DNA of 64,000 bases, taken from assembly GCA_032718475.1 (NCBI GenBank), contig JAUCBJ010006799.1, positions 1 through 64,000 of the forward strand, in the 5' to 3' direction. This DNA is from Nemertoderma westbladi. Taxonomy: Eukaryota > Animalia > Xenacoelomorpha. The position numbers and the translations under genes are program-made. The notes under the pieces were generated by a model. It saw nothing but the letters and a program-made list of their open reading frames with translations, did no database searches and had not been told where the DNA came from. Below are positions 2,474-22,602 of this stretch, one piece after another. Every line of letters begins with the position of its first letter. Position 1 is the stretch's first letter.

Positions 2474-3736
2474 TTAGTTTAGTTTTATTTCTTTTAATCA
2501 CATTAAAAACTCAATATACTGTAGTATTACATTGATATGCAGCCCAGCCACCAGCAATTTATTTATCATATCTGCATTTTATTGTCGACAAGTCCGAATT
2601 AAGTTAAATTAATTATTTGTAGTTTCCATAATTAACATAACTTCCTGCAGGTCGTTCGTTATATTTCACCTGGAAACTGCTAGATATTTATAAACAACCT
2701 GTTTAAATATAGGAAATAATAATATAAAAAACTGAGCAGCGATATCTATGCATAGTTTAGACAATAAATGTGTCGAAATGACAATAAATGTGTCGAAATG
2801 ACAATAAATATGTCAATTGTGACGTCATGAGTTTGCTGAGAAATGTTTAAGTAGGCCTAGATCGCAACATTATAAAATCATGCCGCTCTCCACACACAAA
2901 GTCAAAAGTATTGAAATTACAATTTAATATTTGATATTTTATATGATATGAAATATAATATGCTATTAATGTTTTTGTAGTATTAATAATATGTCACATA
3001 TACAAAGAAGTAAACAAAGTAATATGAAAGTAATTATTGTTTGTGTAGTGTTTGATATGTACTAACGTGTACAACGGAATTGTATATTGAAACTAAGGAA
3101 TCGGGTGTTGCAGGACAACCATTAGGCCTACTGAATAGGGTTTGGATTACTTCCAGATTTTATGACACGTTCTTATTTCGTTTACATACTGCGTGGCCTA
3201 CTCCACTCCTGTCCCATCAGATGATAACCTAAGCTAAAAATCAGCAGCTATATACTAAATACATGTTCGTGGGGCCTTCGCGTAGCACGAGGCTCAGTTA
3301 TGAGATACAGGTTAATATTGAGGGATTCTACTGTATCACAAACTCGGTATCTACGAAATTTAACCAAAACCAGTAAATGAAAGAGAGGGACCCCCCCCCC
3401 CCCCCCCCCCTTAACCTCCCTCATAATCTGCACCACCCCAACCCAAAGGCGCACACAGGATTGATGAAAGGCAGAGAGGTATTAACATAAAATATGTGTT
3501 TTAAAAGTAATATGTTATTTTTATTTTTAATATAACACAAAATACAACTGGAAGCGATTCACTAATATACAAACAGCACAAATTTCTAGCAAAAATAATT
3601 AAAGATCGCATATAGAATTATATTCCCTAAATGCCGTGGATTTTCAAAATTTTATTTTATTCGAATTAACTTTGTAAAGATTGCTTTGAGTTCTCATTAG
3701 TATTGGTTCTATCTATTGTGTATCTATCGGTCAAGT

Positions 3737-3821
3737 GGTTCAGTAGCTCAGTTGGTAGAGCGTTGGAAATTATAAGTGTAGTAGGTATCGAGTTCGAATC
3801 CTAGTAAGTGCGAATTATTTT
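3737..3821 (+). ncRNA. tRNA-derived Pol III unit (box A + box B) in LTR U3; identical copy at 20253-20337
   Basis: GGTTCAG-TAGCTCAGTTGGTAGAGC (box A, perfect GCTC/GAGC D-stem) and GAGTTCGAATCC (box B/T-loop) at tRNA-like spacing, followed by TTTT. The acceptor, anticodon and T stems do not pair well, so this is not a canonical tRNA. Confidence 0.7.
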
Positions 3822-4018
3822 GTGCAGAATTTCAACTCATTTAAATTAACCGCTACAAATTAATTGCATTTGTCTGTACCAATAAGGCTGTAGTTATTTG
3901 ATTGTAACCAATGTCGTGCAAGTTATATATTAGCTGGACCAATAAGCTATCTTTAAAACCTTGTTAGAACCCATAGAACAATCGAGAATTTTCTCGATTG
4001 ATTGCAGCACAAATTTAG

Positions 4019-4162
4019 TATATAAAGGTGCGATTCGTTCATTAGTTATCACACTACACTATTCAATCTCTCAATCTTATATCTATACTTCTCAGATTTA
4101 TTCTGTCGTGCTTAGTTTATTCTCAGATTACATTGTATTATAATTGTGTCTTCTGTAATAAA
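4019..4162 (+). promoter_or_regulatory. Putative LTR TATA box (4019-4026), Inr-like TCATT/TTAGTT (~4040-4048) and polyA signal AATAAA (4157-4162)
   Basis: Motif order and spacing are typical of the U3/R boundary of an LTR. This would imply a U5 of about 1.3 kb. Confidence 0.55.
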
Positions 4163-6344
4163 GTCAGAATATTCTCTCAGCTTTTCTGTTTTACTATGGT
4201 TTCACTACGGTGAACAAACTCAGGGACAGGATGGCCGGCTAGAGATCGGGCCGCAGCAATGAACGGGAACATCACGGGAATGTAGACGAGAGACAACTCG
4301 CAATACCATTTAAAGTTATTCGCCCATCGCCTGAAAGGTTAGACAGCGTTCGATCCTTGCTACCTAAGTGTAAGACCAAAAGATCAACAGGTAGACGTAG
4401 TGACACGCTGTAAGCCCAAAATTACATCATAGGGACTGTACTGTCTTGATTCAGGAAAAACCCACAGTAGACCTTCACATTCCTACGGGAGGGAGAGAGA
4501 GCAGATACTAGTACGCAGATAGGACGTAGGCACACCGGTACAAGGCATACACATTGGTTAGGGTGCAGCAAACTGTACGCTTAACTCTTGCTAAGTACAG
4601 GTGTGTGTGCGACTATTTGCCGTACAACGGTGTCCATTACATCAGAACTTGTAGGCTAGGGGGGTTGCTGTGTTTTCACCTGAATGGGGATTGTACCGTT
4701 CAGGCGGTAGGGCAGTTTACGCTAGGCGCAAAATAAATTGAGGCTATCAGGGATATACTAACATCTACCGTGTCCCCGCCAACGCCCTAATAGGAAGTTA
4801 CCTGGACTACCTGGGTGACTAAAATTCTAGATAGGAGCCAGGATAGCTATTAGTACCCGTACGCCTACCGTAGTAAACTAACACATCTCTTCTTAGTATC
4901 AGGGACCTGGTACCTAAAATTGCCGAATTCTGGGCGTAGTATTAACCTTATGCCTGAATTTGAGTCCTGGAAATACGCAAGAGGGGAAGGAACCTTATCA
5001 TTCGTGAGTATTGGACCTACAAGTTATAAAATTAGAATATTCGTAAAATGCACACCGTACCCAGTAATTATATATGTGAAGGAGCAAAACTGCTTTGACC
5101 GTTCAGAATTAACACACGCGCGTTAGAAATTATTTACACCTCGAAATATATAAAATTAACTTTCGTCCTTACTGCACTTTGCTCGCTAGTTAGACATCTC
5201 CAAATCTGCTCTGTACCTAGCTAGCGTCCCTTTGCCCAACCATATAAATCACACCGCGGCAAAGTATACGAGCCTCTTAGTCCGTCAGTGAGTCAGCCTG
5301 ATTTTAGGATTCGCTGCGCGGGATTTTGTTTCATCGAAGTTTGTCTGCTCGTAGACTGTTTTCTGCCTCACCGGTTAAAAGAGATCGATACTGCAATATA
5401 TTCGCTTACTTGGGGTTTACTGTTTTGGTGAGAAGGTCGGATTTATGATTTGATTTACAAACTTTACAGTAGGATATTGCAGGTATTGTTACCGTCTCTT
5501 CCGATAGTAGGAATAGGCGTATCTCTCCAATTTAGTAGGAATATGTTTTACTGAACTACGGTTCGGTAGGACTAAAGTTTTTTGAAAAATTTGTATTTTG
5601 AGGTAAAAATTTGTATTTGATTAGCTAAGTGCTAATTTTTTTGAAATAAAATTTGATTTGAACCGCGTGTAATATTTTGGAATTGAATACCGGTGTTTAA
5701 AAGGGTTTAAATACCATATTGTACCGGTACAAAATTTTCGTAAAAGTAAAACCTAACTCTTTTGTTTTTTCAGGATTCAGAACTCATTTCTAGACTGTAA
5801 CGGGAGCAAGACCGTGTTTAGCAAGTTTGGGAGATAGATAACTCAACAACTTTGGTTGGGAAAATCGCGTTTCGTCCGCAACGTTAAAAACGGAAAGGTT
5901 CACGTTCGGTTTGTATCTGGGAATCTGTTTTTCTGGAGAATTATTGGAGTGGGTGAGTTTGAAAAGTTGCATAAATAAGTTAGGCATTACCGTATTAGTT
6001 AAAATTTATTGTGGGTTCCACTGTCTCAAGTATTTATGCATTCCGTATGATTTCTTTGTTCATTGCTGAATTAGTCCGTATTATTGTATTTAATTTACCT
6101 TTTGATAACGCATATCGTTATCCGATTTATTTGTTGTAAAATTGGCCGCTAGGCTAATTTTATTATATACTTATTCCGTGACATTTATTTGCTGTAAAAT
6201 TGGCCGTTTTAGGCTAATTTTATCCATCTGCTATAAAATCGGCCGGTAGGCTAATTTTATAAGACTGTAATTAGTACCGTTTAGATATAAATACGGTAAA
6301 CTCGATACTTTGACACTCACGTTACTTGACTTACAACTACCGAA

Positions 6345-8170
6345 ATGAGTGACAAACAAGACTATACGAAGAACACACAAACCGACTATGACTCATGTGA
6401 CGCGGATAAGTCAGCAGCGGAAGAACCACAGGGGAAGACTCGCGAGCCTACCGAACCTACACCGTGTGCGTCACCAGTACACCCAACGGGAGTACCGGAT
6501 GCCGTAGTACGAGGCGACGGCAGGACCGAGGACTTTCTAACTGTTCCGCAACCTAGATATAGGGAAACGGAATTGGTAAGTTCAGCAGGAAGCACAGAAA
6601 GTGTGGTTAGAAGCGTCGGTGGATACATGGCGCATATTACCAGGAGTATTGGAGAAGGCCAACGCATATTAGACGGGTTGACCGCTCCGATGTCTCGATT
6701 CGAGTTCTACACCCTCCAGGTTAGAGTACAGAGTAAAGTATATAAGTCCGTAGATAATCTAGTTGGCCTACAAGATCTAGCTAGACAGAGACAGGACATG
6801 GATACTCAACTTAGAATCCTAGAGAAACTAATGATCACTAGAGAGAAACTGATTCAGTTTAAGTCGACGATTAGACAGATACAACAGGAACAAGCGGACC
6901 AGTTGTTAGGTGAGTCAGTTTCGGACGAATTATTACAACCCGAGGAAGAACAGGAACTGTACCGACTGGATGGACAATTAAAACACCTGACGGACCACTT
7001 ACGTATGTGCGGCGAAGACGTCGGAGATTGGGAAACCGTGCCGGAATATACGAAAGAAACTTCACCCGTACGAATTGAATCGGCACCGGGAATACTGGAC
7101 CAATCGTTGGTAAGTATTCGTAGCGAAATCTGCGAGGGAAGTATAGTCACGTCAGAAGTTGCTCGACAACAGCAAGAATTCCACCGACAACGACAAGAAA
7201 TGGAAGAACAAGCTCAACTTCTAGTGATGCAAGCAGCAGTAGAGGAAGAGAAGCTACGCGTTGCGAATATAGCAAGAATCTCTCATCTACAGGAACAAGC
7301 TGAATTAGAAGCAGCTGAAGTGGAAAGATTAGAAGTAGACATTGCCCGACAAGCGGCAGCGGCAGCGGCCGAGGTAGAACGACAAGCGGCAGCGGCAGCG
7401 GCCGAGTCAGAGCGGCAGCGGCAGCGGCCGAGTCAGAGCGACAAGCGGCAGCGGCAGCGGCCGAGTCAGAGCGACAAGCGGCAGCGGCAGCGGCGGAATT
7501 AGAACGAGACAGGTTAGTTTCGGAAGCACGGGCCGAAATGAAAACACGGCAAATAAAAGCTCAATCCGCCATACGACAAGCAGAATTTGAGGCGCAACAA
7601 CGACAAACGGAACAACGAGAGAAGACAGCTAAACTTCATTTCGAACTTGAGAAGAAGGCGAGAGAATTAGCGAACGCTGAGGAAGATCTGGATCAAAAGG
7701 CCCGCGATCGATCGATGAGATCTCGTGACGGACATGATTTGGACCAGTTAGAGGTAAGACATCGCCAAATTCAGGAACGGAAGAAGGAAGGAAGCGTAGG
7801 AGCACCCGGACGGGAACGACAATTAGTAAAAGACGTGTGTCAACGATTCCCACAGGTAACTCATATGTTTGCACCGGTTACGACTAAGGAACCTGTTTCG
7901 ATTGCGGGTAGTAGTGATATTTCTCCTATTCATGGTGCGACGGAACACAGGTTTGTTATTCCAGACGAGTTTGTACCGCCAAGAGCAACGTCGTCGCCCA
8001 TTCCGAAAGTCAAGGTAAGTAACCCACCGATTACGGATCGTAGTAGTTTATTGACCGGACCCGCACTACTGACGACAAAACAGGTGAGTCCACCTTTGAC
8101 ACCTAAACCCGTTACACATTACGCTTATCCAATGACGTTTCGACCTACAAGGCCAGTTACCCAAGGAGGT
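6345..8170 (+). pseudogene. gag: BEL gag N-terminal region (coiled-coil, Ala-rich repeat, Pro-rich), frameshifted
   Basis: ORFs 6345-7502 and 7538-8224 join across a 33-bp tandem repeat (cgacaagcggcagcggcagcggccgagtcagag). One copy near 7413 lacks 7 bp. The architecture matches the gag of the second BEL element. Confidence 0.8.
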
Positions 8171-9317
8171 GAGGTCTCTATAGGGGTGACTGGAACAGGC
8201 GGCGGCGGACTCGTGAGGGTCTAGGGGCACGTTAAATTCCTTGTATAGTGCTAGGGAGTCACTGAAGGCCCTCGTGTCTAACGAACCATGAATTGCCATG
8301 GTGCCGTGGTACCGTCTAGTCGGCCTGTTGCCGTACTGCCAGTCCTGTACACAGTAGGGGTGGCGGCATGGCGTGATTTGTGGTTCATGTGGCGTGGACT
8401 ATGTTTTGTATGTGGGCGATCAGTGGCAGTTTGCTTGGGGCTTGGATGGTTCCATTGACCGTCAGCTGTTCCGTTTTTTTGATACTATATGTTATTGTCT
8501 CCATGTTCAGCTGATTGGTCTTTGGTGGCATTGGAATAAACCGTCGGGCTTTGAGCTTTCTGTTGCTGTGGGTACGTGAGTACACGTGATTGTATGTGTG
8601 GCCACTGCGAGTGGGTATGGGAACCCTTGCCAGTTGGACAAGACGCCGCTGGTATTAGTAGGACCATACTTTACTGCGCCCCAGCATACTTTGTGCACAC
8701 AAAGTTATTTTACCCTGTCGGTAAAATAAAGTACTCTCGATTTGCTGCCGATCGATACAATTTTGTCCCCTCTGATTTTGTCCCTTCCGATTTTGACCCC
8801 GATTTTGTCTTTACCCGATTATGTCCTCTGTGTGTGCATGGTATGTGTCAGATTTTGTGATTACCGTAGTGTACTTGATTTCGTGAACATCTGTTGAGTA
8901 CACGTGTACAGGACGGGTAAGTGGTTACTTGTTCCTAGCTTTCGAGCTAGTCAATATTGTTGAGGAACGGTGTCCCCTCAATATTGCCGGCGAGGCAGGT
9001 GAAAACGTGTCAATATTCCATGTTGGGTAGCGCAAGCCCACATGGGACAAGACCGTCGGTTAGGCCCAAGGGCGACCTTGGTGCTCGATCGCTATCGACT
9101 GGTCCACCTGCCGGTTGACTCTTTGTTATACTTTGAGTTGGCTCAATGTACAGTCAGGCCACAGTAAGTTGACAGTAGCCGCCCATCTGGCTACACGTTC
9201 GACGAGCTGTGCTGGTGTGATCGGGGGACCGAAAACAGAACCCGGGAAGCATCAGGCCACCCTCCGGCCCGGTCTGATAATAACATCTGTCGGACTGGCC
9301 CCAGGGGTGGTGGAAAG

Positions 9318-12300
9318 GTGTCCGCCTCATGGGTGCGCCTCGGAGTCATCAGAGAGGAGCCCAGAAGGACACAAGTGACAGTTCTATTAAAGATAATAGG
9401 ACGACTCCACCATCGACTTCGTCGGGAGTGGAGGAAGGTCGAATACCAGCGAGAGGAGCGAGGAGGATTCCTAAAATTAGAAGATGTGTACCTTTTAATA
9501 TCCAGGGAGGCGGTAGTAGAAACTCGATCTAACTATACCGACCAGCACATCGTGGCAGAAGGGATCACACTGCCATCCTCCAACCGACAAAAACCCCAGA
9601 CAACATCCACAAAGACGGCCACTTACGCCACACCGACGGAATCACGACAATTCTCAGACGGTAATAGAGTATCTGCGCCCATTGGGACGAAACAGACGAG
9701 ACAGCAACTCAGCACCGACTTCAACGGCTGCCAATACTGCGAACATTTAGGTAAGCGGTATATTGGTCACAAGTTACGAGGTTGTCGACAATTTCGCGAG
9801 TTGAACTCAGAAGAACGACGGCTGCAGATACGGCCACTGGACTCTTGTTGGCGGTGTACGCGACACGGACACGTCCGTAAGGATTGCCCAAATACCGACA
9901 CTTGTCCATCCTGTGGACGCAACCACGACGGTCTGCTCCACACAGACAGCCACACGCCGACGAAACGCTTCGCCAGGGAACACCCGGAAGCAGCAGCGAG
10001 ATGTGATGCGGCTTACCGAAAACGAGAATCGAAAACGACTCCGACTTTCGTGACCCATATAGAGGATTGCTTTTCAGAACAATCCGGATCGTCGGACGAA
10101 GAATCAGAAGACGACGAATATTCAAATGGAGACGAACAACCGTCAATCGCGCTCCTGACCACTGACCAACTGAAGGGATTCAGTGTAATCCCGATTAAAG
10201 TTACTGGCACAAAAGGGAGTAAGAGGATTTACGCGATTCTAGACTCAGCCTCATCTCACAGTTACGTAGATGAAAAGATAGCTGACGTCGTAACAGATCT
10301 TAGACAAGGTAAGCACGTCAGTTATACAGTAAGTAGTATGCACGGACAGCGTGCAATACCAGTGACACGAGTTAAGTTGGACTTAGACTCTCTTCTTCCA
10401 AAATCGCAACACAGCGAGAGGGAGAGGTCTTTGTTGCCCTTTAGAGATCTAACCTTTGCGGCCACGAAGGACTTTAGTAACCTACTAGGTCCAGTGCCGG
10501 AACAATCTCTGGAGGACCGTAAGTATTTCAGACACCTTGGTGTACCCGAATGTCCTGTCAATTATAGATCGGTAGCAATGCTGATCGGGACGGACCAATT
10601 CAACCTACACCAGGTGTGGGAAACCAGACCATCGGCAGTTGTAGCAGGAAACGCATACGCCTGCAGAACGCCGATAGGGTGGTATACTCGAGCGCCTGTG
10701 CGCACACTAGACGTAAGTGACGAGGAAGACGATGTACAGAGTACATGTAGTTTATTAACTACAAATTCAATCCATTCCTTTTCACACGACGTGAACCATA
10801 CTACACTACAGTCGACAAAACATGACAGACGTGTAACTAGTATGATAAGTCACAAGGAGCAGCTAACCCACAAGGTGAGTTTAGAACTTGGGGGGAAGAC
10901 GAATCAGCTAGAGATTCCATCGACGACAGATGATAGGCTTGCGAGTCTACCTACCCCAATAACCTCAACAGTGCCCATCGATATCGACGATGACGCGTTG
11001 AAAATTCATCAGTTGGAACAAGCCGCCTTGGACAAAGAATTAACGGAGAAGACTATCAGGTGGTTAGAACAAGATACAGCTGAACCTGGTAGCTACGACC
11101 CTTGTATGTCGGAACAGGAGAAACAATCTCTAAAGATCATGGAGGATACTATCCGACAGACGGAGGACGGACATTACGAGGTGGGTATGTTATGGCGTAG
11201 CCAAAGTCCTAAACTTATAAACAACTATCCACTGGCTTTAAGACGTCTACACTCAATACGGCAACGTCTATTAAAGGACGAGAAAGCCCATCTGCAGTAT
11301 AACACTCAGATGGAGACGTATTTGACGAAGGGATACGCTATCCGAATGACTAACCTGGAGCGAGTGACCGACCAGACATACTACCTGCCACATCACTATG
11401 TGAGACATCCCGATAAACCAGACAAAGTACGTGTAGTCAATGACTGTGCGGCTCTGTTTGAGGGAATGTCCCTCAATAGTGAGTTGATGGATGGACCGAA
11501 CATGAATAATTATCTTATGGGGGTGATTATGCGCTTCCGTCAGCGTCAAGTAGCCTTTACTTGCGACGTTGAAGCGATGTTTCACCAAGTAAAAGCGTTA
11601 GAGCGAGACAGAGACAGTTTGCGGTTTCTCTGGTATCCGGAAGGGGACTTAAGTCTACCACCAGCGACTTACCAAATGCAAGTTCGCGTTTTCGGTGCCA
11701 GAGACAGCCCGAATTGTACGATGTACGCCTTGAAGCAAGCCGCTAGAGATCAGAAACATCTGTATGACCCAGAGATAATTAGAATTGTAGAACGTGACTT
11801 TTACGTTGATGACGGTTTACAAAGTTGCGACACAGTAGAACGTGCTACAACAGTAGCACATCAATTACGGGACTGCTTGGCGAGCGGAGGTTTTAACCTC
11901 ACCAAATTCGCCTCAAACAGTGCCGAATTAGTTGACTCATTCGGAACTACTGAGCGTGGAGGTGGTGACATAGACCTAGAGTTCGAACCACTACCGACGA
12001 CTAAGGTGTTGGGGCTCTTTTGGGACCCAAACACAGACAACTTTCGAGTGAAGGTGAGACTGGACAGTCAAGGAGACACACTGACCAAGAGATCATGCTT
12101 GTCAAAGTTGAGCCGATTGTTCGATCCGTTAGGATTCATCAGTCCAGTAATACTGCAAGCTCGCATTTATATGCGCAGTATATGGAAGGATGGACTAACA
12201 TGGGACGAGCCGATCTCATCAGACCAAGTGGACTTATGGAAGACCTGGGAGGCGGAATTGTCTTCGCTAGAGGATTATTTCATACCCAGGGTTTACTTTC

Positions 12301-15194
12301 CATTACAGAGTACAGTTCCTGACAACTTGGAACTACACTGTTTTTCTGACGCCAGTGACAACGGTTTTGGTGTGGCAGCGTATTTGCGCAGACAAGTAGA
12401 ATCGGACGAGTTCGATGTTTCGCTCATTACTTCCAAGGCTAAGACCATGCCTACTAAGTATATGACAACACCACGAGCCGAGCTACAAGCCGCGACCCTG
12501 TCAACCACCATCGTGAACCTCATACAGACAGAACTACAGTCGAGTTTACAGATATTTTATTGGACTGACGCGACGTTAGTTTTATTTTACATAAACAACG
12601 ACACTCTCGAATTCAAGACATTCGTAGCTAACCGTCGCGCGGAAATTCTAGACCGTTCAATAAAAGGGGATTGGCGACATTGTCCCGGACCACAAAACCC
12701 AGCTGATATTGCGTCGCGAGGAATGATGCCTGAGGAATTCTGTAAACCGGAGAACAAAGAGTTTTGGCAACACGGACCCCAGTTCTTGCAGAAATCGACA
12801 CAAGATTGGCCTCCGTTATACGACAACAAGTCCAACACCATTCCCAAGGACGCCGAAATCAAGAAACCAAAAAAGGGGAAGACAAAGAAAAAGACGACGG
12901 CGGCGAAACTCAAGAAAAAACCGAAGGCGAAATGGAAAGATATAACTTCAAAGGTCAAGAGAGGAAGACTTGCGAGCCTTTCTACACCAGACATATCGCC
13001 AGACGGTCAACCAGACATATCGCCAGACGGTCAACCAGACACGTTACTAGACAGCCAACCAGACATTTTGCCAGACATATCACAAAATGTTCCACCAGAC
13101 GTTAGTAACGCACTGACAAACAGTAAAGCCGCAGTTTCCCTATTGGAGCGGCCTTCTATTGACAAACAACCAGATACGTTACCAGACGTATCGCCAGACA
13201 CACTACTAGACAGTCGACTAGACACTAGTAATGTATTGACTAACAATAAAGCCGCAGTTTCCCTATTGGAGCGGCCTTGTATTGACAAACTACCAATTTT
13301 GACACACTTGAGCAACCATAAGCACGGTGAAACCTCATGTATTACAGATGTGGGTAGTACCTACGCTAATGTAAATACAGGTGTTACTTTGCGCTCAAGA
13401 GACATACCGAACCTACAACCTACGGTGAGACCTGGGATTAATGTCGGCAGGAAAATAAGTTTACCAAAACCTGCTGACCCCATAGAGTTCAAACCACCAT
13501 TAACGATCGACTTACAAAGTACTGACAATCAAGGTAAGAAGACAAAGAAGGACAAATTACTTGTAGACCCGGACGGATCAACAGTCAACAAGGGAATACT
13601 TACCGGCGGACCCGTGGGCCCTTCTAGTAATTCAAAACCTTCCAAGTTCTCCATTGACTTACCTGATGACGTCACAAATACTTATGTCGACCGTATTGTA
13701 AACTTAACAGACTCTTGGTCAAACGCTTGCCGAAAATTAGCGTGGATTGTACGTTTTGTACAATACGTTAAAGGCAAACGTGACTTCACACGTCGACTTA
13801 CATTGGCTGAGATTGACAGGTGTGAGATTAAATTAATTCGCCATTACCAACTGAGATATTTCGCGCGCGAATTCACATCTATAAGTCAAGGTCAACCAAT
13901 CAAGTCGTCACCAATACTGAGTTGGAGTCCGATTATTTATAATGGCTTAATTTGTCATAAATCTCGGCTTCAAAACATTGACTTTAACACAAACTTTAGG
14001 TACCCAATAATAATACCGCAACATCACGAACTACAACGTGCTATGATACTGGACGCACATTTACATCTGAAACACGCTGGAAGACACCACTGTCTTTCCT
14101 ACTTACGTACTAGATTTGTATTAATTAGACCCAGTAAAGCATTAAGTTCCGTGACACGTACGTGTATTATTTGTAAAAAGGTACATTCTAGAATAGGTAC
14201 CCAAGAAATGAGTGAACTACCACAAGCACGACTTCAAGCATTCAGACCACCTTTTACAGAGACTGGAATTGATTGCTTTGGTCCCATACATACGAAACGT
14301 GGACGTATACTAGTAAAACGCTGGGGACTGATTTTCACATGTATGTCCAGTAGGGCAGTTCACATTGAACGTGTGACGGATCTTTCCACCAACGCGTTTA
14401 TTCTAGCACTGCGGCGATTTATCGCTAGACGCGGACTAGTAAAATGCTTGTACTCAGACCAAGGGACAAACTTCGTTGGTGCTCGGAATGAGATTGCTAG
14501 AGCCTTTAAGAAATTAGATCATGATCAAATCTCGAACGAACTGCAACCTCACAAGATTGTTTGGAAGTTTAATCCTCCAGATAGTCCTTGGAGAGGCGGA
14601 GTCTGGGAGAGATTGATTAGATCTATCAAAACGGCCATGGCAAAGGTCATTCCAGTAAACCACATATTAACAGACGACCAACTGACAACATTGTTTGTTG
14701 AAATCGAGGCAATACTAAATACTAGACCAATAGTATTAGTACCCGATGACAAACAATCTCAGTTCGCTTTAACACCAGCACACCTGCTTATGCAGGCACC
14801 GACCACATTGACGCCGATTTCCATGCCAATGGAAAGCGATAGCTACGGGAGAAAAGCGTGGAAAATCACGCAACTACTGGCTAACAAATTCTGGGAAATA
14901 TGGCAAAACCATTATTTGCCCTCTATTTCTGCCAGAACAAACTGGTACAATAACACCCGCGCATTAAAGCCGGGAGATCACGTGCTGTTGGCGGAAGTGA
15001 ATCTAAAAAGACGCTTCTGGATAACAGGTGTCATTTTAGCCACACATCCATCTATGGATGGAGTGACAAGAACTGTGACGGTACGGACAATTGACGGTCG
15101 TACAGTAGACAGACCGACTCAACGTCTCGTACTTCTTGAAGAGACTCGTAACGAGTCTGGAGACTACAAATCTCCACCTAATACTAGTAAATAA
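9318..15194 (+). CDS. pol: BEL gag C-terminus plus Pol (3 Zn knuckles, aspartic protease, RT, RNase H, integrase), open for 1958 codons
   Basis: Knuckles CQYC..H..C, CWRCTRHGHVRKDC and CPSCGRNHDGLLH. Protease ILDSASSHSY. RT KVRVVNDCAA, DVEAMFHQV, FYVDD. RNase H FSDAS, PRAEL, FYWTD, NPADIASRG. Integrase HLHLKH..CIIC, TGIDCFGP, SDQGTNF, GGVWERL. Confidence 0.97.
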   Translation: MSASWVRLGVIREEPRRTQVTVLLKIIGRLHHRLRREWRKVEYQREERGGFLKLEDVYLLISREAVVETRSNYTDQHIVAEGITLPSSNRQKPQTTSTKTATYATPTESRQFSDGNRVSAPIGTKQTRQQLSTDFNGCQYCEHLGKRYIGHKLRGCRQFRELNSEERRLQIRPLDSCWRCTRHGHVRKDCPNTDTCPSCGRNHDGLLHTDSHTPTKRFAREHPEAAARCDAAYRKRESKTTPTFVTHIEDCFSEQSGSSDEESEDDEYSNGDEQPSIALLTTDQLKGFSVIPIKVTGTKGSKRIYAILDSASSHSYVDEKIADVVTDLRQGKHVSYTVSSMHGQRAIPVTRVKLDLDSLLPKSQHSERERSLLPFRDLTFAATKDFSNLLGPVPEQSLEDRKYFRHLGVPECPVNYRSVAMLIGTDQFNLHQVWETRPSAVVAGNAYACRTPIGWYTRAPVRTLDVSDEEDDVQSTCSLLTTNSIHSFSHDVNHTTLQSTKHDRRVTSMISHKEQLTHKVSLELGGKTNQLEIPSTTDDRLASLPTPITSTVPIDIDDDALKIHQLEQAALDKELTEKTIRWLEQDTAEPGSYDPCMSEQEKQSLKIMEDTIRQTEDGHYEVGMLWRSQSPKLINNYPLALRRLHSIRQRLLKDEKAHLQYNTQMETYLTKGYAIRMTNLERVTDQTYYLPHHYVRHPDKPDKVRVVNDCAALFEGMSLNSELMDGPNMNNYLMGVIMRFRQRQVAFTCDVEAMFHQVKALERDRDSLRFLWYPEGDLSLPPATYQMQVRVFGARDSPNCTMYALKQAARDQKHLYDPEIIRIVERDFYVDDGLQSCDTVERATTVAHQLRDCLASGGFNLTKFASNSAELVDSFGTTERGGGDIDLEFEPLPTTKVLGLFWDPNTDNFRVKVRLDSQGDTLTKRSCLSKLSRLFDPLGFISPVILQARIYMRSIWKDGLTWDEPISSDQVDLWKTWEAELSSLEDYFIPRVYFPLQSTVPDNLELHCFSDASDNGFGVAAYLRRQVESDEFDVSLITSKAKTMPTKYMTTPRAELQAATLSTTIVNLIQTELQSSLQIFYWTDATLVLFYINNDTLEFKTFVANRRAEILDRSIKGDWRHCPGPQNPADIASRGMMPEEFCKPENKEFWQHGPQFLQKSTQDWPPLYDNKSNTIPKDAEIKKPKKGKTKKKTTAAKLKKKPKAKWKDITSKVKRGRLASLSTPDISPDGQPDISPDGQPDTLLDSQPDILPDISQNVPPDVSNALTNSKAAVSLLERPSIDKQPDTLPDVSPDTLLDSRLDTSNVLTNNKAAVSLLERPCIDKLPILTHLSNHKHGETSCITDVGSTYANVNTGVTLRSRDIPNLQPTVRPGINVGRKISLPKPADPIEFKPPLTIDLQSTDNQGKKTKKDKLLVDPDGSTVNKGILTGGPVGPSSNSKPSKFSIDLPDDVTNTYVDRIVNLTDSWSNACRKLAWIVRFVQYVKGKRDFTRRLTLAEIDRCEIKLIRHYQLRYFAREFTSISQGQPIKSSPILSWSPIIYNGLICHKSRLQNIDFNTNFRYPIIIPQHHELQRAMILDAHLHLKHAGRHHCLSYLRTRFVLIRPSKALSSVTRTCIICKKVHSRIGTQEMSELPQARLQAFRPPFTETGIDCFGPIHTKRGRILVKRWGLIFTCMSSRAVHIERVTDLSTNAFILALRRFIARRGLVKCLYSDQGTNFVGARNEIARAFKKLDHDQISNELQPHKIVWKFNPPDSPWRGGVWERLIRSIKTAMAKVIPVNHILTDDQLTTLFVEIEAILNTRPIVLVPDDKQSQFALTPAHLLMQAPTTLTPISMPMESDSYGRKAWKITQLLANKFWEIWQNHYLPSISARTNWYNNTRALKPGDHVLLAEVNLKRRFWITGVILATHPSMDGVTRTVTVRTIDGRTVDRPTQRLVLLEETRNESGDYKSPPNTSK

Positions 15195-15790
15195 TTAGGA
15201 GTTTACAAATAGATTTCCACGTACCTGTACACCGTAGTAAGGACAGCGGTAGAATTCCATTGTCTTTATATGTGAACATTGAGGGTAGTACCCTTATGTG
15301 TCACATAGGAGCGGGATTTGTAGGTATAAGAAATGGAATTCTACTTGGAACTCACAATATTGAGACATTTTCGAAATTTTAGACAATCCATTTGGATTTG
15401 AAAAATTTTTAAAATTTTCTCCAGTGAATAGATTTCAGGGTACAGTCGGGTGGAACTTAAAATTAGAGAAACAAGAGAGGAAGACTTGCGAGCCTTTCTT
15501 AAAATTTTAATTAAATTTTACACGGTCTTGTTTCAATAAGTTACGTCAAAATAGACTCCCCTATATTTATTACTAATTCTTGATTGCTTATTTTCTGATA
15601 ATAGTTTGGGATCAAAAAGTGAGTATTTTAGACTCACGGCCAGTTTAGCCCAAATTCGTTTTTACTTCGGCAAAAATTTTAGATAAGAAGCAGCGTGTCA
15701 TTAAAGAAACCCTAGATCTTAGGCTATGGGTAGGAGGTTAGAGCGTTGTCGAGCCCAAAGGGCAGACGAAACTCTCACGTCTCCTCACAA

Positions 15791-15821
15791 CTAACTACAA
15801 ACTCTGTTGTATTCCCTCTAG
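15791..15821 (+). promoter_or_regulatory. Putative branch point and 3' splice acceptor for a subgenomic accessory-ORF mRNA
   Basis: CTAAC (15791-15795), then a pyrimidine-rich tract ctctgttgtattccctc and TAG (15819-15821), 30 nt before the ORF3 ATG. Confidence 0.55.
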
Positions 15822-15851
15822 TAGTAATGATTATGTAACTACACCCTAATT

Positions 15852-17702
15852 ATGGAGAAAGGGATACAAGGAGAGCCGAGATGGGGATATGATATCCAAG
15901 AGGAGGCAGCAGCGCCATTCGAAAGATTTGGAGCCAAGGATTATACTATATTTGGTATAAAAGAATTATCGGAAAGTACAGCGAAACTCGCGAGAACTAA
16001 ATATGACTCGAATGTATTAAAGAGAAGGCAAAACGCATTAAACGAAAGAATCGAAAGTTTGCGCCAAACCTTCAACGAACTTTACCCGTACGATGCTTTG
16101 TGTGATACGGGAGACATTAGCGAAGACCCCGATACTGAAATTAGTCGTTTGTATCATACCATGCAATACCTAAAGGCGCACGAACCTATGCCCGCGGTAC
16201 GCGATGAATTCGATGGAATGCATCTTTACAGACGAACTCGAGGGGACGATAGAGAAACCAAGGAAGCATTTTCAGTTTATAAACTTTATTATCAATGCGG
16301 TTCTTGTATGCGCGAACAACGAAATGCGATTCCGATGCGTTTGAATAAGGAAAATCCCGAACCGATATTGGCGAGGTGTTCGAATCATCAACAACTACGC
16401 TACCAGGAAGGAGGGTACCCTTTATCGAATCCATATCATTCAACGACACTCAATTTCCCTATTAGTATACCAGTCCGACAGGATACGACGTACGAAATAC
16501 CCATCGTGGATCATCCAGAAATCATTTCAAACTTGGAGTTTCTTCCTGCAGTTGTTTTCAGCGATATGAGTAAGATATATGATTTGCGTAGACATATTAC
16601 TCAAAAGGTCGTGAACAACGTTCCACCTCATATCCAAGATTTTAAGGAACTGGATAGAGCTGGTGCCGACATAGCTCCGAGTAATCTGAAAGGATATCTA
16701 ACCAAGACGATTCGTTTATGGATTGGAATCGGAACCTTCGAGTCGGATACGGATATTGCCGCAGATTGGCGAGGTAAGGTTATTCGTTTCGATGAGGATA
16801 AGGATATAGAGAAGATTTGGCAACCTTCGGAAGAATTGTTGGATGAATGGACTAGGACGTTTAGATCGTTTCAGGAAAACGGTTATATGTTTTACGATAA
16901 CGAGGGCGGCAGTCATCAGCAGAGTTTGACTTCTAAGACTATACAGATTAGAGCGGCGGACGGAGTCCTGCACGTTTTCAGTAGACAGAGGAGCGACAAA
17001 CGAATGCCGATACCTCCAGCGAATACAAAGCGACACCATCTTATCACCGATATAGTAAAGAAGATGGACCAAGCTTGTAATATTGACGCTAGAATGTTAC
17101 CGAAGATGGTAAGAAACATGATTTTAGATAAAACTGTTGTAAAGGTTGGATCAGGAGTAAGGGAGGATTTAATTAGCGACTTCGCCGGCATGACGGACAG
17201 CGATGACCGACTACCGACACCATACGTCGACACTCGACCTCTTATTCTGTGGTCTATAGAACAGGGATATTTTCGTGAGTATAATACTCAGAAGACTGGA
17301 ACTGGATACATTTCCTACCTGTTATTCAATTGGGATTATAAGGAAGGTAAAAGAAACAAGTATATTGAAACTTATGGAGAAGGTGATACTCCAGATATGA
17401 GTGAGTTTGAATCACAGCTTAAATGGAGAGGATGCGTGTATTGGGCTATTACGTCACCTCCAAGAGCGGTCTTACAATATTATTTAGCGATAGAGTCGTC
17501 AGTGAATGTTTGCCTAATCGCCGACATTGTGTCTCGGACTCTCAAAAGACATCCACTTTGTCTCGGAGAAGATCATACGTTCTACATGGAAGGGAGAATT
17601 CGTACCGACGTGTTTAGACGATTCCTTGAACCCTTCTACAACTCCGACGCTCAGTGTAATGCCTTTACTCGAGCAGGATTTAGCATATGTAGCATATGTT
17701 AG
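15852..17702 (+). CDS. Accessory ORF3: DEDDy/DnaQ-like (WRN/EXD2/RNase D-type) 3'-5' exonuclease-like protein with an N-terminal CxxC..CxxH motif
   Basis: WRGKVIRF strand. ExoI YMFYDNEG (D349, E351), then TIQIRAADGVLHVF. ExoII LPKMVRNMILDKTVVKVGSGVREDL (D439), then YVDTRPL. ExoIII-like W..SPPRAVLQYYLAIE (Y544, with E548 in place of D). Confidence 0.75.
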   Translation: MEKGIQGEPRWGYDIQEEAAAPFERFGAKDYTIFGIKELSESTAKLARTKYDSNVLKRRQNALNERIESLRQTFNELYPYDALCDTGDISEDPDTEISRLYHTMQYLKAHEPMPAVRDEFDGMHLYRRTRGDDRETKEAFSVYKLYYQCGSCMREQRNAIPMRLNKENPEPILARCSNHQQLRYQEGGYPLSNPYHSTTLNFPISIPVRQDTTYEIPIVDHPEIISNLEFLPAVVFSDMSKIYDLRRHITQKVVNNVPPHIQDFKELDRAGADIAPSNLKGYLTKTIRLWIGIGTFESDTDIAADWRGKVIRFDEDKDIEKIWQPSEELLDEWTRTFRSFQENGYMFYDNEGGSHQQSLTSKTIQIRAADGVLHVFSRQRSDKRMPIPPANTKRHHLITDIVKKMDQACNIDARMLPKMVRNMILDKTVVKVGSGVREDLISDFAGMTDSDDRLPTPYVDTRPLILWSIEQGYFREYNTQKTGTGYISYLLFNWDYKEGKRNKYIETYGEGDTPDMSEFESQLKWRGCVYWAITSPPRAVLQYYLAIESSVNVCLIADIVSRTLKRHPLCLGEDHTFYMEGRIRTDVFRRFLEPFYNSDAQCNAFTRAGFSICSIC

Positions 17703-19222
17703 CATATGTGTATCTTCGCTGTGCGGGATCTCTTATCGAAAGACCATCTATGTTTACATTGTTACCCTATGAAGGAGAACGTATTGTGGAAATTACGGAT
17801 GAATCACGGCAGACGCGCGCGCCTATCGGTCACCTCGGTGATGATTTCAACGTAACTACTACGATCGCCGACGATCCTTTAGAGGAACTTCTTGAGATAG
17901 AAAGGAACCTCCCGAAGAAATCTCAGACGGAGATTCGACAACTTGAAGCAACAGATGCTATAGTTTGCATACAACCTTCAGAAACCTACCAACCCATAGA
18001 CCCAGATGATTACGATTATAGTGTGGGAGGAAGCGCTCGACCGATTGGAGATCTTATATACGAACGAGTGTGGTACCCTGCTAATACGATGTGTAGTAAA
18101 TGTGGCGTCGCTGGACATCATATGGCAAAGTGCAGTGGAAAGCACATTACTACGACTCAGCTAATCTGTGGATGGTGTGGGGATCAAGGGTCTCATACCT
18201 TTTATACTTGCTGGAGATTTATGGCTCAGTGTACTTACTGCAATATAAAGGGACATCGAGCATCTGAATGCCAACTAAGGGACATACCTTATGAACACGA
18301 ATCTGTAAAACTCGTGAGGAAGTTATTTGATGAGTGGGAAGATTTAGCCGACGAACATGTATCAGCACAAAGAAGACGGTTTCCGATGAGAGCGCATCTT
18401 GGATTTTGGGCGGTGAATCCTCAAACGATGATGTCGGAAGGATACATCTCCGCTATGCCCCAATATGACGAACTTATCGAGGTTGTCGATATTTTGCCCC
18501 ACGACAGCGGATTTCGAGTGGTGCGCGAGTATCTGTTACAGATTCACCCAGATAACAAAAACACGTGGAATTTTCAGAAAGTCGTAAATCGTATCACGTA
18601 TGGTGAATTTGATCGTTTCCGAACCGAAAAGCGGAATAAAGGAGCTTGGTTAACCGTCGCATGGGCGTACCGAGCCGCGTTTTACCATAAACGTATACGA
18701 GCGAGCGTATTCGAGGAAGAAGAGGTCCTAGAGGCGACGAATATACCAGCCACTCCGGTTGCGCCGTCTGCACGTCACCCTCGGGAGGACGGGCAGGGTA
18801 GGATCATACGGGTCCAGAAGGTGGGCCAACAATTGAAGAAAATTATTAATGTAGAAGAACGCAAGGGAGTTGAGCCGACTATTCGAGTTACTCGGGATAC
18901 GGTATCACTTCCAAGAGAACCGGTAGGAGGATCGGGACATACACCAGCTGATCAACAGGGGGCGCAAGCTACTCTCGGGTCTGCGTCGTCCGCTTCTCAC
19001 GCGTTCCCAGACGTTCTACCAACTGTAGCGACAACTGATCGGTCACGAGGAATTGGTCGAGGTTTTGGGATGCCAAATAGACGAATTTGCGAGGAAATAG
19101 TCGCACCGTCTCTCAACGTCCCAAATAAACCAGTGACTCGCCCCATTAGTCCCATATCGCGAGCAAAGTCACCTGTGCGCAGTTTTCGAGGACGCGGCAG
19201 GGCTCGATCTATTAAGCGATAA
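17696..19222 (+). CDS. Accessory ORF4: three clustered CCHC zinc knuckles and a disordered RG-rich C-terminus
   Basis: CSKCGVAGHHMAKC (from aa133), CGWCGDQGSHTFYTC (aa158), CTYCNIKGHRASEC (aa179). C-terminal RSRGIGRG and RSFRGRGRAR. Confidence 0.8.
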   Translation: MLAYVYLRCAGSLIERPSMFTLLPYEGERIVEITDESRQTRAPIGHLGDDFNVTTTIADDPLEELLEIERNLPKKSQTEIRQLEATDAIVCIQPSETYQPIDPDDYDYSVGGSARPIGDLIYERVWYPANTMCSKCGVAGHHMAKCSGKHITTTQLICGWCGDQGSHTFYTCWRFMAQCTYCNIKGHRASECQLRDIPYEHESVKLVRKLFDEWEDLADEHVSAQRRRFPMRAHLGFWAVNPQTMMSEGYISAMPQYDELIEVVDILPHDSGFRVVREYLLQIHPDNKNTWNFQKVVNRITYGEFDRFRTEKRNKGAWLTVAWAYRAAFYHKRIRASVFEEEEVLEATNIPATPVAPSARHPREDGQGRIIRVQKVGQQLKKIINVEERKGVEPTIRVTRDTVSLPREPVGGSGHTPADQQGAQATLGSASSASHAFPDVLPTVATTDRSRGIGRGFGMPNRRICEEIVAPSLNVPNKPVTRPISPISRAKSPVRSFRGRGRARSIKR

Positions 19223-19259
19223 AAGGGAGGGCAAGGGTGGACGGAAGACTCGTGAGCCT

Positions 19260-20100
19260 TTCTTATGATTTGTGATTTATTTGAATTATATGTTTTATAT
19301 TTAGAAAGTTTTGTATTCTGAAAGGGACTCATATTTAGTAAAAACTTATATTTTATATTTGTGCTTATTCCAAACTTATGCAATTTGTATTGTTCCGAAT
19401 TTATGAAATTTAGAAAGTTTAGAAGGAACTTATATTTGAAAGATTTATGTTTCATATTTGAGATGCAAAGGTTTATATTATTCTAAACTTATGCAGTTTA
19501 TATCTATATTTAGTAAGACTACCCAAAGAGAGTTTATATTTGTAAGAATTTATATTTATATTTGTAATTATTCCGAACTTATACAATTTATATTATTCCA
19601 AACTTATGCAATTTGTATTGTTCCGAATATTATGCAATTTATATTTTATAAGCAGTATTTGTACCTAAAGAGAAAGTTTTATAGACAGAAAATTTTGTGC
19701 TCAGAAAGACTCATATTTGTAATTATTCCAAACTTATGCAATCTACATTTAGGTACGAAAGTATTTGTAATTACTTGAATTTATGCAATATTTGAGATGC
19801 AATAGTAGATGGAAGACTCGCGAGCCTTTCTTATTGTTTTCATTTATTTGTATTTGTAATTGTTTGAATTTATGCAATATCTGAGATGCAATAGATTTAT
19901 ATTGGTGAATTTAATTTAGATTTATATTGTACTTACTTAGTAAAGCCTTAAATACGTAAAGTTTAAATTTGTAATTATTTTGTATCGAATCATTACGTAG
20001 AAAGGAAGTATTGTTTGAAACTTAATTGTAAATATGTAAGTACGCCCTAAGTATTCTATAGTTTGATTGATTATTGGTGAAAACCGTATATTTTATGCAC
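19260..20100 (+). repeat. AT-rich 3' UTR with dispersed TATTCC(A/G)AA(C/T)TTATGCAAT repeats
   Basis: The motif recurs at about 19366, 19477, 19569, 19594, 19723, 19775 and 19863. Confidence 0.7.
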
Positions 20101-20126
20101 GATAATATCCTGTTTTCATGGAGCGG

Positions 20127-22050
20127 TATAGAATTATATTCCCTAAATGCCGTGGATTTTCAAAATTTTATTTTATTCGAATTAACTTTGTAAAGATTGC
20201 TTTGAGTTCTCATTAGTATTGGTTCTATCTATTGTGTATCTATCGGTCAAGTGGTTCAGTAGCTCAGTTGGTAGAGCGTTGGAAATTATAAGTGTAGTAG
20301 GTATCGAGTTCGAATCCTAGTAAGTGCGAATTATTTTGTGCAGAATTTCAACTCATTTTAATTAACCGCTACAAATTAATTGCATTTGTCTGTACCAATA
20401 AGGCTGTAGTTATTTGATTGTAACCAATGTCGTGCAAGTTATATATTAGCTGGACCAATAAGCTATCTTTAAAACCTTGTTAGAACCCATAGAACAATCG
20501 AGAATTTTCTCGATTGATTGCAGCACAAATTTAGTATATAAAGGTGCGATTCGTTCATTAGTTATCACACTACACTATTCAATCTCTCAATCTTATATCT
20601 ATACTTCTCAGATTTATTCTGTCGTGCTTAGTTTATTCTCAGATTACATTGTATTATAATTGTGTCTTCTGTAATAAAGTCAGAATATTCTCTCAGCTTT
20701 TCTGTTTTACTATGGTTTCACTACGGTGAACAAACTCAGGGACAGGATGGCCGGCTAGAGATCGGGCCGCAGCAATGAACGGGAACATCACGGGAATGTA
20801 GACGAGAGACAACTCACAATACCATTTAAAGTTATTCGCCCATCGCCTGAAAGGTTAGACAGCGTTCGATCCTTGCTACCTAAGTGTAAGACCAAAAGAT
20901 CAACAGGTAGACGTAGTGACACGCTGTAAGCCCAAAATTACATCATAGGGACTGTACTGTCTTGATTCAGGAAAAACCCACAGTAGACCTTCACATTCCT
21001 ACGGGAGGGAGAGAGAGCAGATACTAGTACGCAGATAGGACGTAGGCACACCGGTACAAGGCATACACATTGGTTAGGGTGCAGCAAACTGTACGCTTAA
21101 CTCTTGCTAAGTACAGGTGTGTGTGCGACTATTTGCCGTACAACGGTGTCCATTACATCAGAACTTGTAGGCTAGGGGGGTTGCTGTGTTTTCACCTGAA
21201 TGGGGATTGTACCGTTCAGGCGGTAGGGCAGTTTACGCTAGGCGCAAAATAAATTGAGGCTATCAGGGATATACTAACATCTACCGTGTCCCCGCCAACG
21301 CCCTAATAGGAAGTTACCTGGACTACCTGGGTGACTAAAATTCTAGATAGGAGCCAGGATAGCTATTAGTACCCGTACGCCTACCGTAGTAAACTAACAC
21401 ATCTCTTCTTAGTATCAGGGACCTGGTACCTAAAATTGCCGAATTCTGGGCGTAGTATTAACCTTATGCCTGAATTTGAGTCCTGGAAATACGCAAGAGG
21501 GGAAGGAACCTTATCATTCGTGAGTATTGGACCTACAAGTTATAAAATTAGAATATTCGTAAAATGCACACCGTACCCAGTAATTATATATGTGAAGGAG
21601 CAAAACTGCTTTGACCGTTCAGAATTAACACACGCGCGTTAGAAATTATTTACACCTCGAAATATATAAAATTAACTTTCGTCCTTACTGCACTTTGCTC
21701 GCTAGTTAGACATCTCCAAATCTGCTCTGTACCTAGCTAGCGTCCCTTTGCCCAACCATATAAATCACACCGCGGCAAAGTATACGAGCCTCTTAGTCCG
21801 TCAGTGAGTCAGCCTGATTTTAGGATTCGCTGCGCGGGATTTTGTTTCATCGAAGTTTGTCTGCTCGTAGACTGTTTTCTGCCTCACCGGTTAAAAGAGA
21901 TCGATACTGCAATATATTCGCTTACTTGGGGTTTACTGTTTTGGTGAGAAGGTCGGATTTATGATTTGATTTACAAACTTTACAGTAGGATATTGCAGGT
22001 ATTGTTACCGTCTCTTCCGATAGTAGGAATAGGCGTATCTCTCCAATTTA
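20127..22050 (+). repeat. 3' LTR (1,924 bp)
   Basis: Copy of 3611-5534, preceded by the PPT-like catggagcgg and followed by the TSD tcgca. Confidence 0.97.
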
Positions 22051-22602
22051 TCGCATATTATTTAATTTACTTAACCAAGAATGAAATCTATAAACCTTGT
22101 AACATGTTAAACTCATAAAGTAATATATTAAATATTTTAAGCGTGGAGGCGATCCATTTTGTAAGAAATATAAAACTTACCTTATGCCGAGTATTGATAC
22201 TGGGATATTTATTTATCATGTCAACGCCTCAACGCAATCATTTAGCTAATTATTCTGAAGAATCATGATTAAGTACTCGGCCAATCATTTTGTAAGCTAA
22301 ACACAATAACCAAGCTGGCTTATTAGTCTGGCTCATTACAATGCTGCCTTTGAGTGGAGGTGAGGTGTGGTGTGGTTGGACTGGTTCCCCTTCCAAGCTA
22401 GGCTAGGCGTGCCAACGAAGGAGGGAGCTATAGCTGGAGACGGGGCATTTTAATAAGTTAATTACGTTTAGATCAATTAAAAACACATTTCTTAAAGCAA
22501 ATCTCTTGAACTATAATGGAATGTTGTATGTGGATTACAGCTGTATAACTTTTAAGTATAATTATTTAAATCTTATACTAGAAAATAATTAATATCCTTT
22601 AA

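Follow-up and report, generated by a model that had tools for sequence, protein, structure and literature searches.

A BEL/Pao retrotransposon of Nemertoderma westbladi with a predicted Werner/EXD2-type exonuclease gene and an overlapping zinc-knuckle gene between pol and the 3' LTR

Which genes does a BEL/Pao retrotransposon carry between pol and its 3' long terminal repeat (LTR), in the position of env, and what might their products do? This question is raised by a locus of Nemertoderma westbladi contained in the first 64,000 nucleotides (forward strand) of contig JAUCBJ010006799.1 of assembly GCA_032718475.1, the stretch that was analyzed here and is referred to as the window. In this element, two long open reading frames (ORFs) on the plus strand, ORF3 (15852..17702, 616 amino acids [aa]) and ORF4 (17696..19222, 508 aa), lie between the BEL/Pao pol gene (9168-15194) and the 3' LTR. 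The ATG of ORF4 lies within the last codons of ORF3, giving an overlap of 7 nt, and the chance of frames this long at the local base composition is ~1e-18 for ORF3 and ~1e-12 for ORF4. ORF3 is likely to encode a Werner/EXD2-type 3'-5' exonuclease, as predicted from its sequence, and ORF4 is predicted to encode an RNA-binding protein with three zinc knuckles. Neither ORF is an env gene, because both lack a membrane segment (the best 19-residue hydropathy is 1.38 in ORF3 and 0.78 in ORF4), and neither has a match to a glycoprotein or fusion protein in Pfam. The first-pass annotation of this DNA, made from the letters alone, had described two long ORFs between pol and the 3' LTR and had viewed them as a nuclease and zinc-knuckle cassette in place of env; both frames are indeed open, and the env position is occupied by genes without env features.

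The N-terminal 300 aa of ORF3 are without assignment and are followed by a DEDDy-type domain (aa ~330-565), the exonuclease-like region of which maps to 16839..17546 (plus strand) by ESM Atlas and by an ordered-block test. The succession of motifs listed in the first-pass annotation is present as described, with FYDNEG starting at aa 347, IQI at aa 364, ILDKTVVKVGSGVREDL at aa 424, VDTRPL at aa 459, and YLAIE at aa 544. The ExoI residues D349 and E351 (codons at 16896 and 16902) and the ExoII residue D439 (17166), which follows KVGxG, are canonical; Y544 (17481) and E548 (17493) would complete the putative catalytic set. We consider it very probable that this is an exonuclease domain of the WRN/EXD2 class, because four weaker lines of evidence converge, namely NCBIfam, ESM Atlas, a WRN-like profile with its alignment, and an AlphaFold model. 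Among the 18,950 models of NCBIfam, the sole match, a weak one, was to a DnaQ family and covers ExoI (aa 345-408; E values of 0.024-0.095). In ESM Atlas, aa 330-565 scored 0.93 among named clusters, with 171 of 256 features in common and all 30 matches in the PF01612 set, the second of them being a "Werner syndrome-like exonuclease"; aa 300-616 scored 0.83 with the same kind of clusters, the two queries counting as one source. The WRN-like profile was built from 50 bacterial WRN-like exonucleases, and a 25-member subset of it has WRN, mut-7, and EXD2 as its best PDB matches. Its best local match in ORF3 is the ExoII stretch, and an unsupervised MAFFT alignment placed D349, E351, Q365, the lysine and glycine of KVG, and D439 on invariant columns, with 14-25% identity between ORF3 and the bacterial members. 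The ordered seven-block score of ORF3 was 46.4, a value reached by none of 1000 shuffled sequences (maximum, 35.6) and none of 240 pieces of BEL pol (maximum, 36.8); ExoII was the top block, with 18.7 bits versus 5.9 for the next one.

The single-sequence AlphaFold model of ORF3 had a predicted local distance difference test (pLDDT) score of 30.5. A second model, of the domain (aa 322-575), had an input alignment consisting of the bacterial WRN-like rows cut before ExoIII. The ExoI strand is present in the AlphaFold model. Searches with the domain model returned EXD2 and Egalitarian as the best Foldseek matches (best E value of 3.9e-3, none below 0.001) and, in VIA, an EXD2 match with Z 7.6 and rmsd 6.2 over 108 aligned residues; judging by their titles, all 50 rows among the VIA matches listed are DnaQ-like proteins or contain such a domain. 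Because the WRN-like alignment guided this model, it shows no more than compatibility with the DnaQ-like fold that is predicted for ORF3.

Several results weigh against the exonuclease assignment. With the WRN-like profile, HMMER recovered the ExoII stretch only, at 1.9 bits, a score equalled by 4 of 1000 shuffles; hhalign gave a probability of 2%; and the glocal alignment had a z-score of 2.2, which 10 of 300 shuffles and 11 of 100 BEL pol pieces also attained. ORF3 was not matched by a profile of short RNase D-like proteins either (29 proteins, from 40 loci). Sequence relatives of ORF3 were likewise absent at an E value of ≤0.001 among the 7,233 candidates of a word-index protein search, among the 1.84 billion representatives searched with HMMER, in the metagenome contigs searched, and, above chance level, in Pfam, PHROGs, and the PDB sequences. 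As for the supporting tests, the blocks and spacings of the seven-block test were picked after the candidate alignment had been seen, which makes the test supporting rather than independent, and its chain took as ExoI a stretch at aa 309 that lacks DxE. In ESM Atlas, shuffled proteins score 0.9 in 4-10 of 100 cases, and the calibration is not for protein parts. The domain model itself is of low confidence (pLDDT of 61, predicted TM score of 0.54). Translated searches of phages and plasmids with tblastn gave 0 and 3 records, respectively, which is the chance level, and a search for longer WRN-like proteins returned 14 proteins, bacterial fusions by their domains and names, none with retroelement domains. 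The profile and structure check that had been suggested for ORF3 thus had a mixed outcome: there was no Pfam match and the profile comparisons were weak, while the Foldseek match to EXD2, obtained with an alignment-guided model, is compatible with the domain. The ESM Atlas result and the seven-block test sustain the proposal of a DEDDy-type domain of the WRN/EXD2/mut-7 kind.

There are two candidates for ExoIII. Y544/E548 follows a CxxW motif, is helix-like, and was picked by the seven-block test, with Glu replacing Asp; Y508/D512 was picked by MAFFT and has the canonical letters in a Gly/Pro-rich context. The AlphaFold model does not decide between them, and accepting Y544/E548 means loss of the canonical aspartate, both of which count against the exonuclease reading. 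ExoIII is probably Y544/E548, an Asp-to-Glu change. YLAIE is present as the first-pass annotation had it, but it is not the sole candidate.

ORF4 combines an acidic N terminus, three CCHC knuckles (aa 133-192, starting at aa 133, 158, and 179, as originally noticed), and a basic low-complexity tail. The knuckles match zf-CCHC of Pfam with an E value of 0.003, which is below the curated cutoff, and the best PDB matches of ORF4 are retroviral nucleocapsid knuckles, all weak (E values of 0.016-0.86). The tail had been called RG-rich, a description that did not hold: it contains 23% Lys plus Arg over aa 440-508 and only 4 RG dipeptides. A search of metagenome contigs with ORF4 revealed no relative. 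Derivation of ORF4 by duplication of the element's own gag knuckles was considered and rejected, as it has no match to the frame that starts at 9168. Two cysteine clusters in ORF3, C149/C152/C176 within its first 300 residues (15852-16750) and C602/C613/C616 at its end (17655-17699), are possible zinc sites.

ORF3 and ORF4 belong to a diverse multicopy family. Five of nine public runs contain the stretch, and four of these (X1, X2, X3, and X5) were aligned to the element. In none of the four is a bin over ORF3 or ORF4 without depth, the runs having been picked using these ORFs. The aligned contigs number 9,535 in X3 and 22,751 in X2, many at 85-95% identity; depth gives no copy number. Among 31 records listed of more than 33,000, there are five ORF3/ORF4 pieces at ~85-88% identity, four of them gap-free and one spanning aa 424-477, including ExoII. 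The numbers of gaps were 6, 10, 4, and 1 in four diverged noncoding pieces and 0, 0, 2, 4, 0, and 0 in six diverged pol pieces, and the 12 best-supported indels of 108 are all outside the long ORFs. This gap pattern, which is not a ratio of nonsynonymous to synonymous substitutions (dN/dS), suggests coding constraint on ORF3/ORF4 across subfamilies. The codon use of ORF3 shows correlations of 0.50 with pol and 0.53 with gag, whereas that with the window's one host gene is -0.28. Some observations count against this reading: a diverged 701-nt LTR piece has only 1 gap; the diverged ORF3/ORF4 pieces are short and without linkage to pol; and joints that drop most of ORF3 were found in X1 and X2 (15991->17658) and in X3 (16011->17781). 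Overall, ORF3 and ORF4 have the appearance of parts of a diverse family rather than of a single capture event.

Copies with the 15991->17658 or 16011->17781 joints keep most of ORF4 and appear to be natural deletion derivatives. One X1 contig has 366 extra bases, in frame, between 16442 and 16443 (codon 198), upstream of the nuclease domain, and 6 X2 contigs have loose ends at the same place. The last 20 of these 366 bases resemble the motif region near 6452.

How might two genes downstream of pol be expressed? Env is usually expressed via a spliced RNA from the leader. The 5' leader of this element has a splice donor at 5951..5957 (G/GTGAGT context, plus strand), and a pyrimidine tract with AG at 15806..15821 (plus strand), ~31 nt 5' of the ORF3 ATG, provides an acceptor. 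The corresponding GT..AG joint, 5951->15821, is present in one X1 contig (depth of 210.9), with 29 letters on the shorter side. Whether it stems from a transcript or from a retroposed spliced copy, this contig implies splicing. On the other hand, the splice is seen in a single contig from 1 of the 4 runs, with those 29 letters on one side, and X1 is presumed to be DNA; the joint is not listed for X2, X3, and X5. ORF3 and ORF4 are likely made from a spliced subgenomic RNA, and, because the start of ORF4 overlaps the stop of ORF3, ORF4 would be translated by reinitiation on the same RNA. ORF3s of retrotransposons in general are described as being expressed via splicing, like env (PMC5408684; except for the BEL/Pao survey PMC3118150, statements on cited sources refer to the portions of their text that were available).

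The element that carries these genes is a BEL/Pao LTR retrotransposon (Belpaoviridae), as judged by its pol domain order, BEL-specific domains, and LTRs. The pol frame (9168..15194, plus strand, 2,008 codons) encodes, by Pfam matches and motifs, gag knuckles, protease, reverse transcriptase (RT; YVDD), RNase H, and integrase, the last four in this order with motifs at 10239, 11802, 12342, and 14271-14598. It matches Peptidase_A17 (PF05380, E value of 6.5e-42), DUF5641 (PF18701, 1.2e-20), and Integrase_H2C2 (1.2e-4). A search with the RT-RNase H region found 679 relatives among 4,521 candidates; of these, the 120 among the matches listed all contain PF05380, are at most 43% identical to the element, and, as far as their origin is given, belong for the most part to marine invertebrates. 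The superfamily given in the first-pass annotation is therefore upheld. None of these 120 BEL pol relatives contains PF01612. A tree built with 37 of these relatives, and with neither named references nor an outgroup, places the element on a long unsupported branch, with no assignment to one of the named subclades (BEL, Pao, Tas, Suzu, Sinbad, Dan, or Flow); this and the low identity of its pol indicate an isolated BEL/Pao lineage.

In the window copy, gag is broken. Its N-terminal part (6345..8224, plus strand) occupies two open frames, 6345-7502 and 7319-8224; the split, near 7320-7500, falls in an Ala-rich repeat, and there is a stop at 8224. A BEL gag homolog profile matches 7158-7628 weakly (E value of 2.7e-4), and profile positions 192-338 (of 735) have no meaningful score in any frame. 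The segment that interrupts gag (8208..9142) has a reversed AT skew and contains stop codons in each of the six frames; the gag profile has no match to it on either strand, and the lack of one on the minus strand led to rejection of a simple gag inversion. X1 and X5 contigs diverge upstream of 9378, yet every run has depth over 8208-9377.

By self-comparison of the window, the element spans 3611-22050, which amounts to 18,440 bp of integrated DNA. Its 5' LTR (3611..5534) and 3' LTR (20127..22050), direct repeats on the plus strand of 1,924 bp each, are 99.9% identical, with mismatches at 3843 and 4300. Because the LTRs differ at only 2 of 1,924 positions and both flanks carry the same 5-bp target-site duplication (3606..3610 and 22051..22055, plus strand), the insertion is recent, as the first-pass annotation had held. 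Although young, the copy is not an intact one, since gag is split across frames and in part unrecognizable; the 18-kb genome given in that annotation is right for the integrated DNA, while the RNA would be shorter. The LTRs end in TA..TA rather than the usual TG..CA, which is typical of LTR elements and not BEL/Pao defining. There is no TGG primer site directly 3' of the 5' LTR, where the bases after 5534 begin with GTAGG. Inside the 5' LTR, a TATA-like box (4019), an AATAAA (4157), and a TGG site (4197) resemble the end of an ordinary 0.6-kb LTR, and the LTR repeat and the target-site duplication extend 1.3 kb beyond that point. Self-priming from the LTR was rejected, the longest complement being 8 nt, the chance level. 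A tRNA-like stretch at 3736-3815 (and 20252-20331) has A-box- and B-box-like sequences by eye; a true tRNA gene was discarded, given 0 genes in ARAGORN and 0 Rfam matches, the 252 calls of relaxed ARAGORN being uninformative. A 17-nt near-palindrome occurs at 6433, 12963, 15479, 19243, and 19811, in both coding and noncoding sequence, and in none of the other 45.6 kb; a copy with 2 mismatches is at 10951 on the minus strand. This motif is a candidate for a protein-binding site on DNA or RNA.

What the pair does can only be proposed. We tentatively favor, at somewhat short of even confidence, a reading in which two accessory genes in the env position, expressed from spliced RNA, encode a WRN/EXD2-class nuclease and a knuckle protein that act on RNA 3' ends. 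A spliced leader-to-ORF3 subgenomic RNA would carry both ORFs, and ribosomes would restart at the 7-nt overlap, making ORF4. ORF3 would be active with glutamate in place of the fourth aspartate, and ORF4 would supply RNA binding, like the zinc-finger domain of trypanosome RNase D (TbRND). With RNA as the presumed substrate, ORF3 and ORF4 together might shorten or degrade RNAs from the 3' end to the benefit of the element, the most likely targets being small silencing RNAs of the host or tagged element RNA; the window copy, its gag being broken, would need Gag from another copy. Such an accessory RNA-acting module is favored because the nuclease is separate from Gag-Pol, because its pairing with knuckles parallels TbRND, in which the zinc-finger domain greatly enhances the binding and cleavage of RNA (PMC7797062), and because of viral precedent, the arenaviral exonuclease (ExoN) being linked to immune suppression (PMC7968707). 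Against it, no result obtained here points to a substrate, and the rotifer DEDDy ORFs are described as having no clear link to copy number (PMC5408684). A more elaborate version seems somewhat improbable as a whole: env would have been swapped for a two-gene module with a spliced bicistronic message, in which an active DEDE nuclease would be aimed by its knuckle adaptor at the 3' ends of PIWI-interacting and small interfering RNAs, the module having been acquired independently of rotifers. If so, LTR elements of different superfamilies would repeatedly arrive at an anti-silencing enzyme. Should the pair act on small RNAs, it would represent a counter-silencing enzyme that an animal transposon encodes, and action on cDNA would open a route to proofreading in reverse transcription.

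Other explanations have to be weighed against this accessory RNA-acting nuclease. That ORF3/ORF4 are a captured host or foreign passenger without benefit, or that the exonuclease likeness is a chance assembly of short motifs, is quite unlikely: neither the 616-codon nor the 508-codon frame is interrupted, pieces diverged by ~14% are mostly gap-free, a dedicated splice acceptor precedes ORF3, its codon use resembles that of the element, and ESM Atlas, NCBIfam, MAFFT, and the block tests agree on the superfamily and the residues, although ORF3 has no sequence relatives, its hidden Markov model (HMM) scores are weak, and some copies do without most of it. WRN-class enzymes act on DNA, so ORF3 could instead work inside the particle, proofreading or trimming the cDNA or primer ends of a long genome with unusual ends. 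The length of the element (18,440 bp), its TA..TA termini, and the missing TGG site directly after the 5' LTR would suit such a role, as would the nidoviral ExoN that accompanies large genomes (PMC7968707) and the DEDDy domains of Dada transposons, with a proposed function in 3'-end processing (PMC3706591). However, ORF3 is separate from Gag-Pol and would need its own way into the particle, and no such domain is described for larger LTR elements such as Burro and Ogre (PMC6431247); this role is judged unlikely.

A catalytic function may also be secondary. In a further alternative, which we rate as somewhat unlikely, ORF3 would resemble Egalitarian or EXD1 in using its exonuclease fold chiefly to bind RNA as an adaptor, and with ORF4 would export, localize, or package unspliced RNA, perhaps via the 17-nt motif. 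ExoIII is probably noncanonical, as this would allow, and Egalitarian retains all five catalytic residues, which are dispensable for its RNA binding and function, and binds the signal of the I-factor retrotransposon (bioRxiv 10.1101/2025.08.03.668247). Egalitarian and EXD1 are among the top structural matches of the ORF3 model, but those matches tie with one another, and the model behind them was guided by an alignment. Splicing obliges an element to export its unspliced RNA as well, and Cer1 does so via CERV, a product of a spliced mRNA (PMC10309623). The element contains 5 copies of the motif with at most 1 mismatch, and the window has none elsewhere; on the other side, the motif gives no consistent hairpin (z-scores from +0.94 to -2.09), and D349, E351, and D439 are kept.

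The remainder of the window contains other mobile elements and a host gene. A second, diverged BEL/Pao element (58048-64000) is disrupted by several stops and breaks of frame and has the Ala-rich gag repeat in common with the first; the window ends before the 3' part of this element is reached. The host gene is of the galactosyltransferase family, a single open frame on the minus strand at 45608-46831 (PF01762, E value of 2.6e-49). Fragments of non-LTR retrotransposons at 25657-26661 (minus strand), 38679-39534, 37436-38758 (minus strand), and 52463-53074 were recognized by an RVT_1 match (E value of 1.1e-10), an inverted 77% copy, and a weak endonuclease match, with 37436-38758 identified by eye only. 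Foldback-like arrays at 35031-36096 and 22868-23674 form long inverted repeats that are built of tandem units of 21-22 bp and ~162 bp.

Comparison with known systems helps to delimit what is new. In Rrp6 and Air1/2, a DEDDy nuclease acts alongside a CCHC knuckle protein, and the first-pass annotation had likened the pair to them. This likeness found no support, as the look-alikes of ORF3 are WRN-like and ORF3 has no HRDC match in Pfam, while the best PDB matches of ORF4 are, again, weak ones to retroviral nucleocapsid knuckles. ORF3 shares with WRN, EXD2, mut-7/Nibbler, and the plant Werner-like proteins (PF01612) the DxE of ExoI, the IQ strand, KVGxG..D, CxxW, and a probable ExoIII helix, and differs from them in having two insertions of ~30 aa, YLAIE instead of YAAxD, and no Pfam HMM match. 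With TbRND, it has in common that a DEDD-type exonuclease is accompanied by zinc-binding modules (PMC7797062); there, these form one cellular polypeptide acting on guide RNAs, whereas here they are encoded by two ORFs of a mobile element, whose products are putative partners.

Among BEL/Pao elements, the extra ORFs named in PMC13524379 are glycoproteins. Roo and the mosquito elements with chuvirus-like glycoproteins likewise have a gene more, downstream of pol and upstream of the 3' LTR (PMC13524379); unlike in such env-carrying elements, ORF3 and ORF4 have no membrane segment or glycoprotein match. A literature search that did not extend to Repbase, subscription journals, supplements, or the original Terminon paper found neither an exonuclease ORF in BEL/Pao nor a nuclease-plus-knuckle pair, and the BEL/Pao survey PMC3118150 does not contain the word "exonuclease" at all.

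The closest parallel comes from bdelloid rotifers. A DEDDy ORF3 after pol, mentioned in the first-pass annotation, is indeed documented in the LTR elements Juno1-2, Vesta2, and Vesta5, activity not being shown in that account (PMC5408684), and DEDDy ORFs are also described in Athena/Terminon retroelements (PMC5408684, PMC6431247). No rotifer ORF3 was among the results of the two ORF3 protein searches (7,233 candidates and 1.84 billion representatives). As described there, the rotifer DEDDy ORF3s are likewise located after pol in the env position, lack a membrane segment, and have an altered acidic tetrad, although the likely change affects the fourth acid here (DEDE) and gives DEED in rotifers (PMC5408684). 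In contrast to the Gypsy-like rotifer elements, with which the comparison is by description only, the host element is BEL/Pao, ORF3 is 616 aa long with a long unassigned N terminus, and the nuclease ORF shares an overlap with an additional ORF that encodes three CCHC knuckles. DEDDy ORF3s in rotifer elements were thus already known; new here, as far as the literature search extended, are a predicted DEDDy-type ORF3 in BEL/Pao and its overlapping knuckle ORF. A high-copy family with diverged subfamilies and ORF3-less copies makes selection, expression, and substrate directly testable. The element from N. westbladi extends the rotifer arrangement to a second LTR superfamily and adds to it a knuckle protein and a defined splice.

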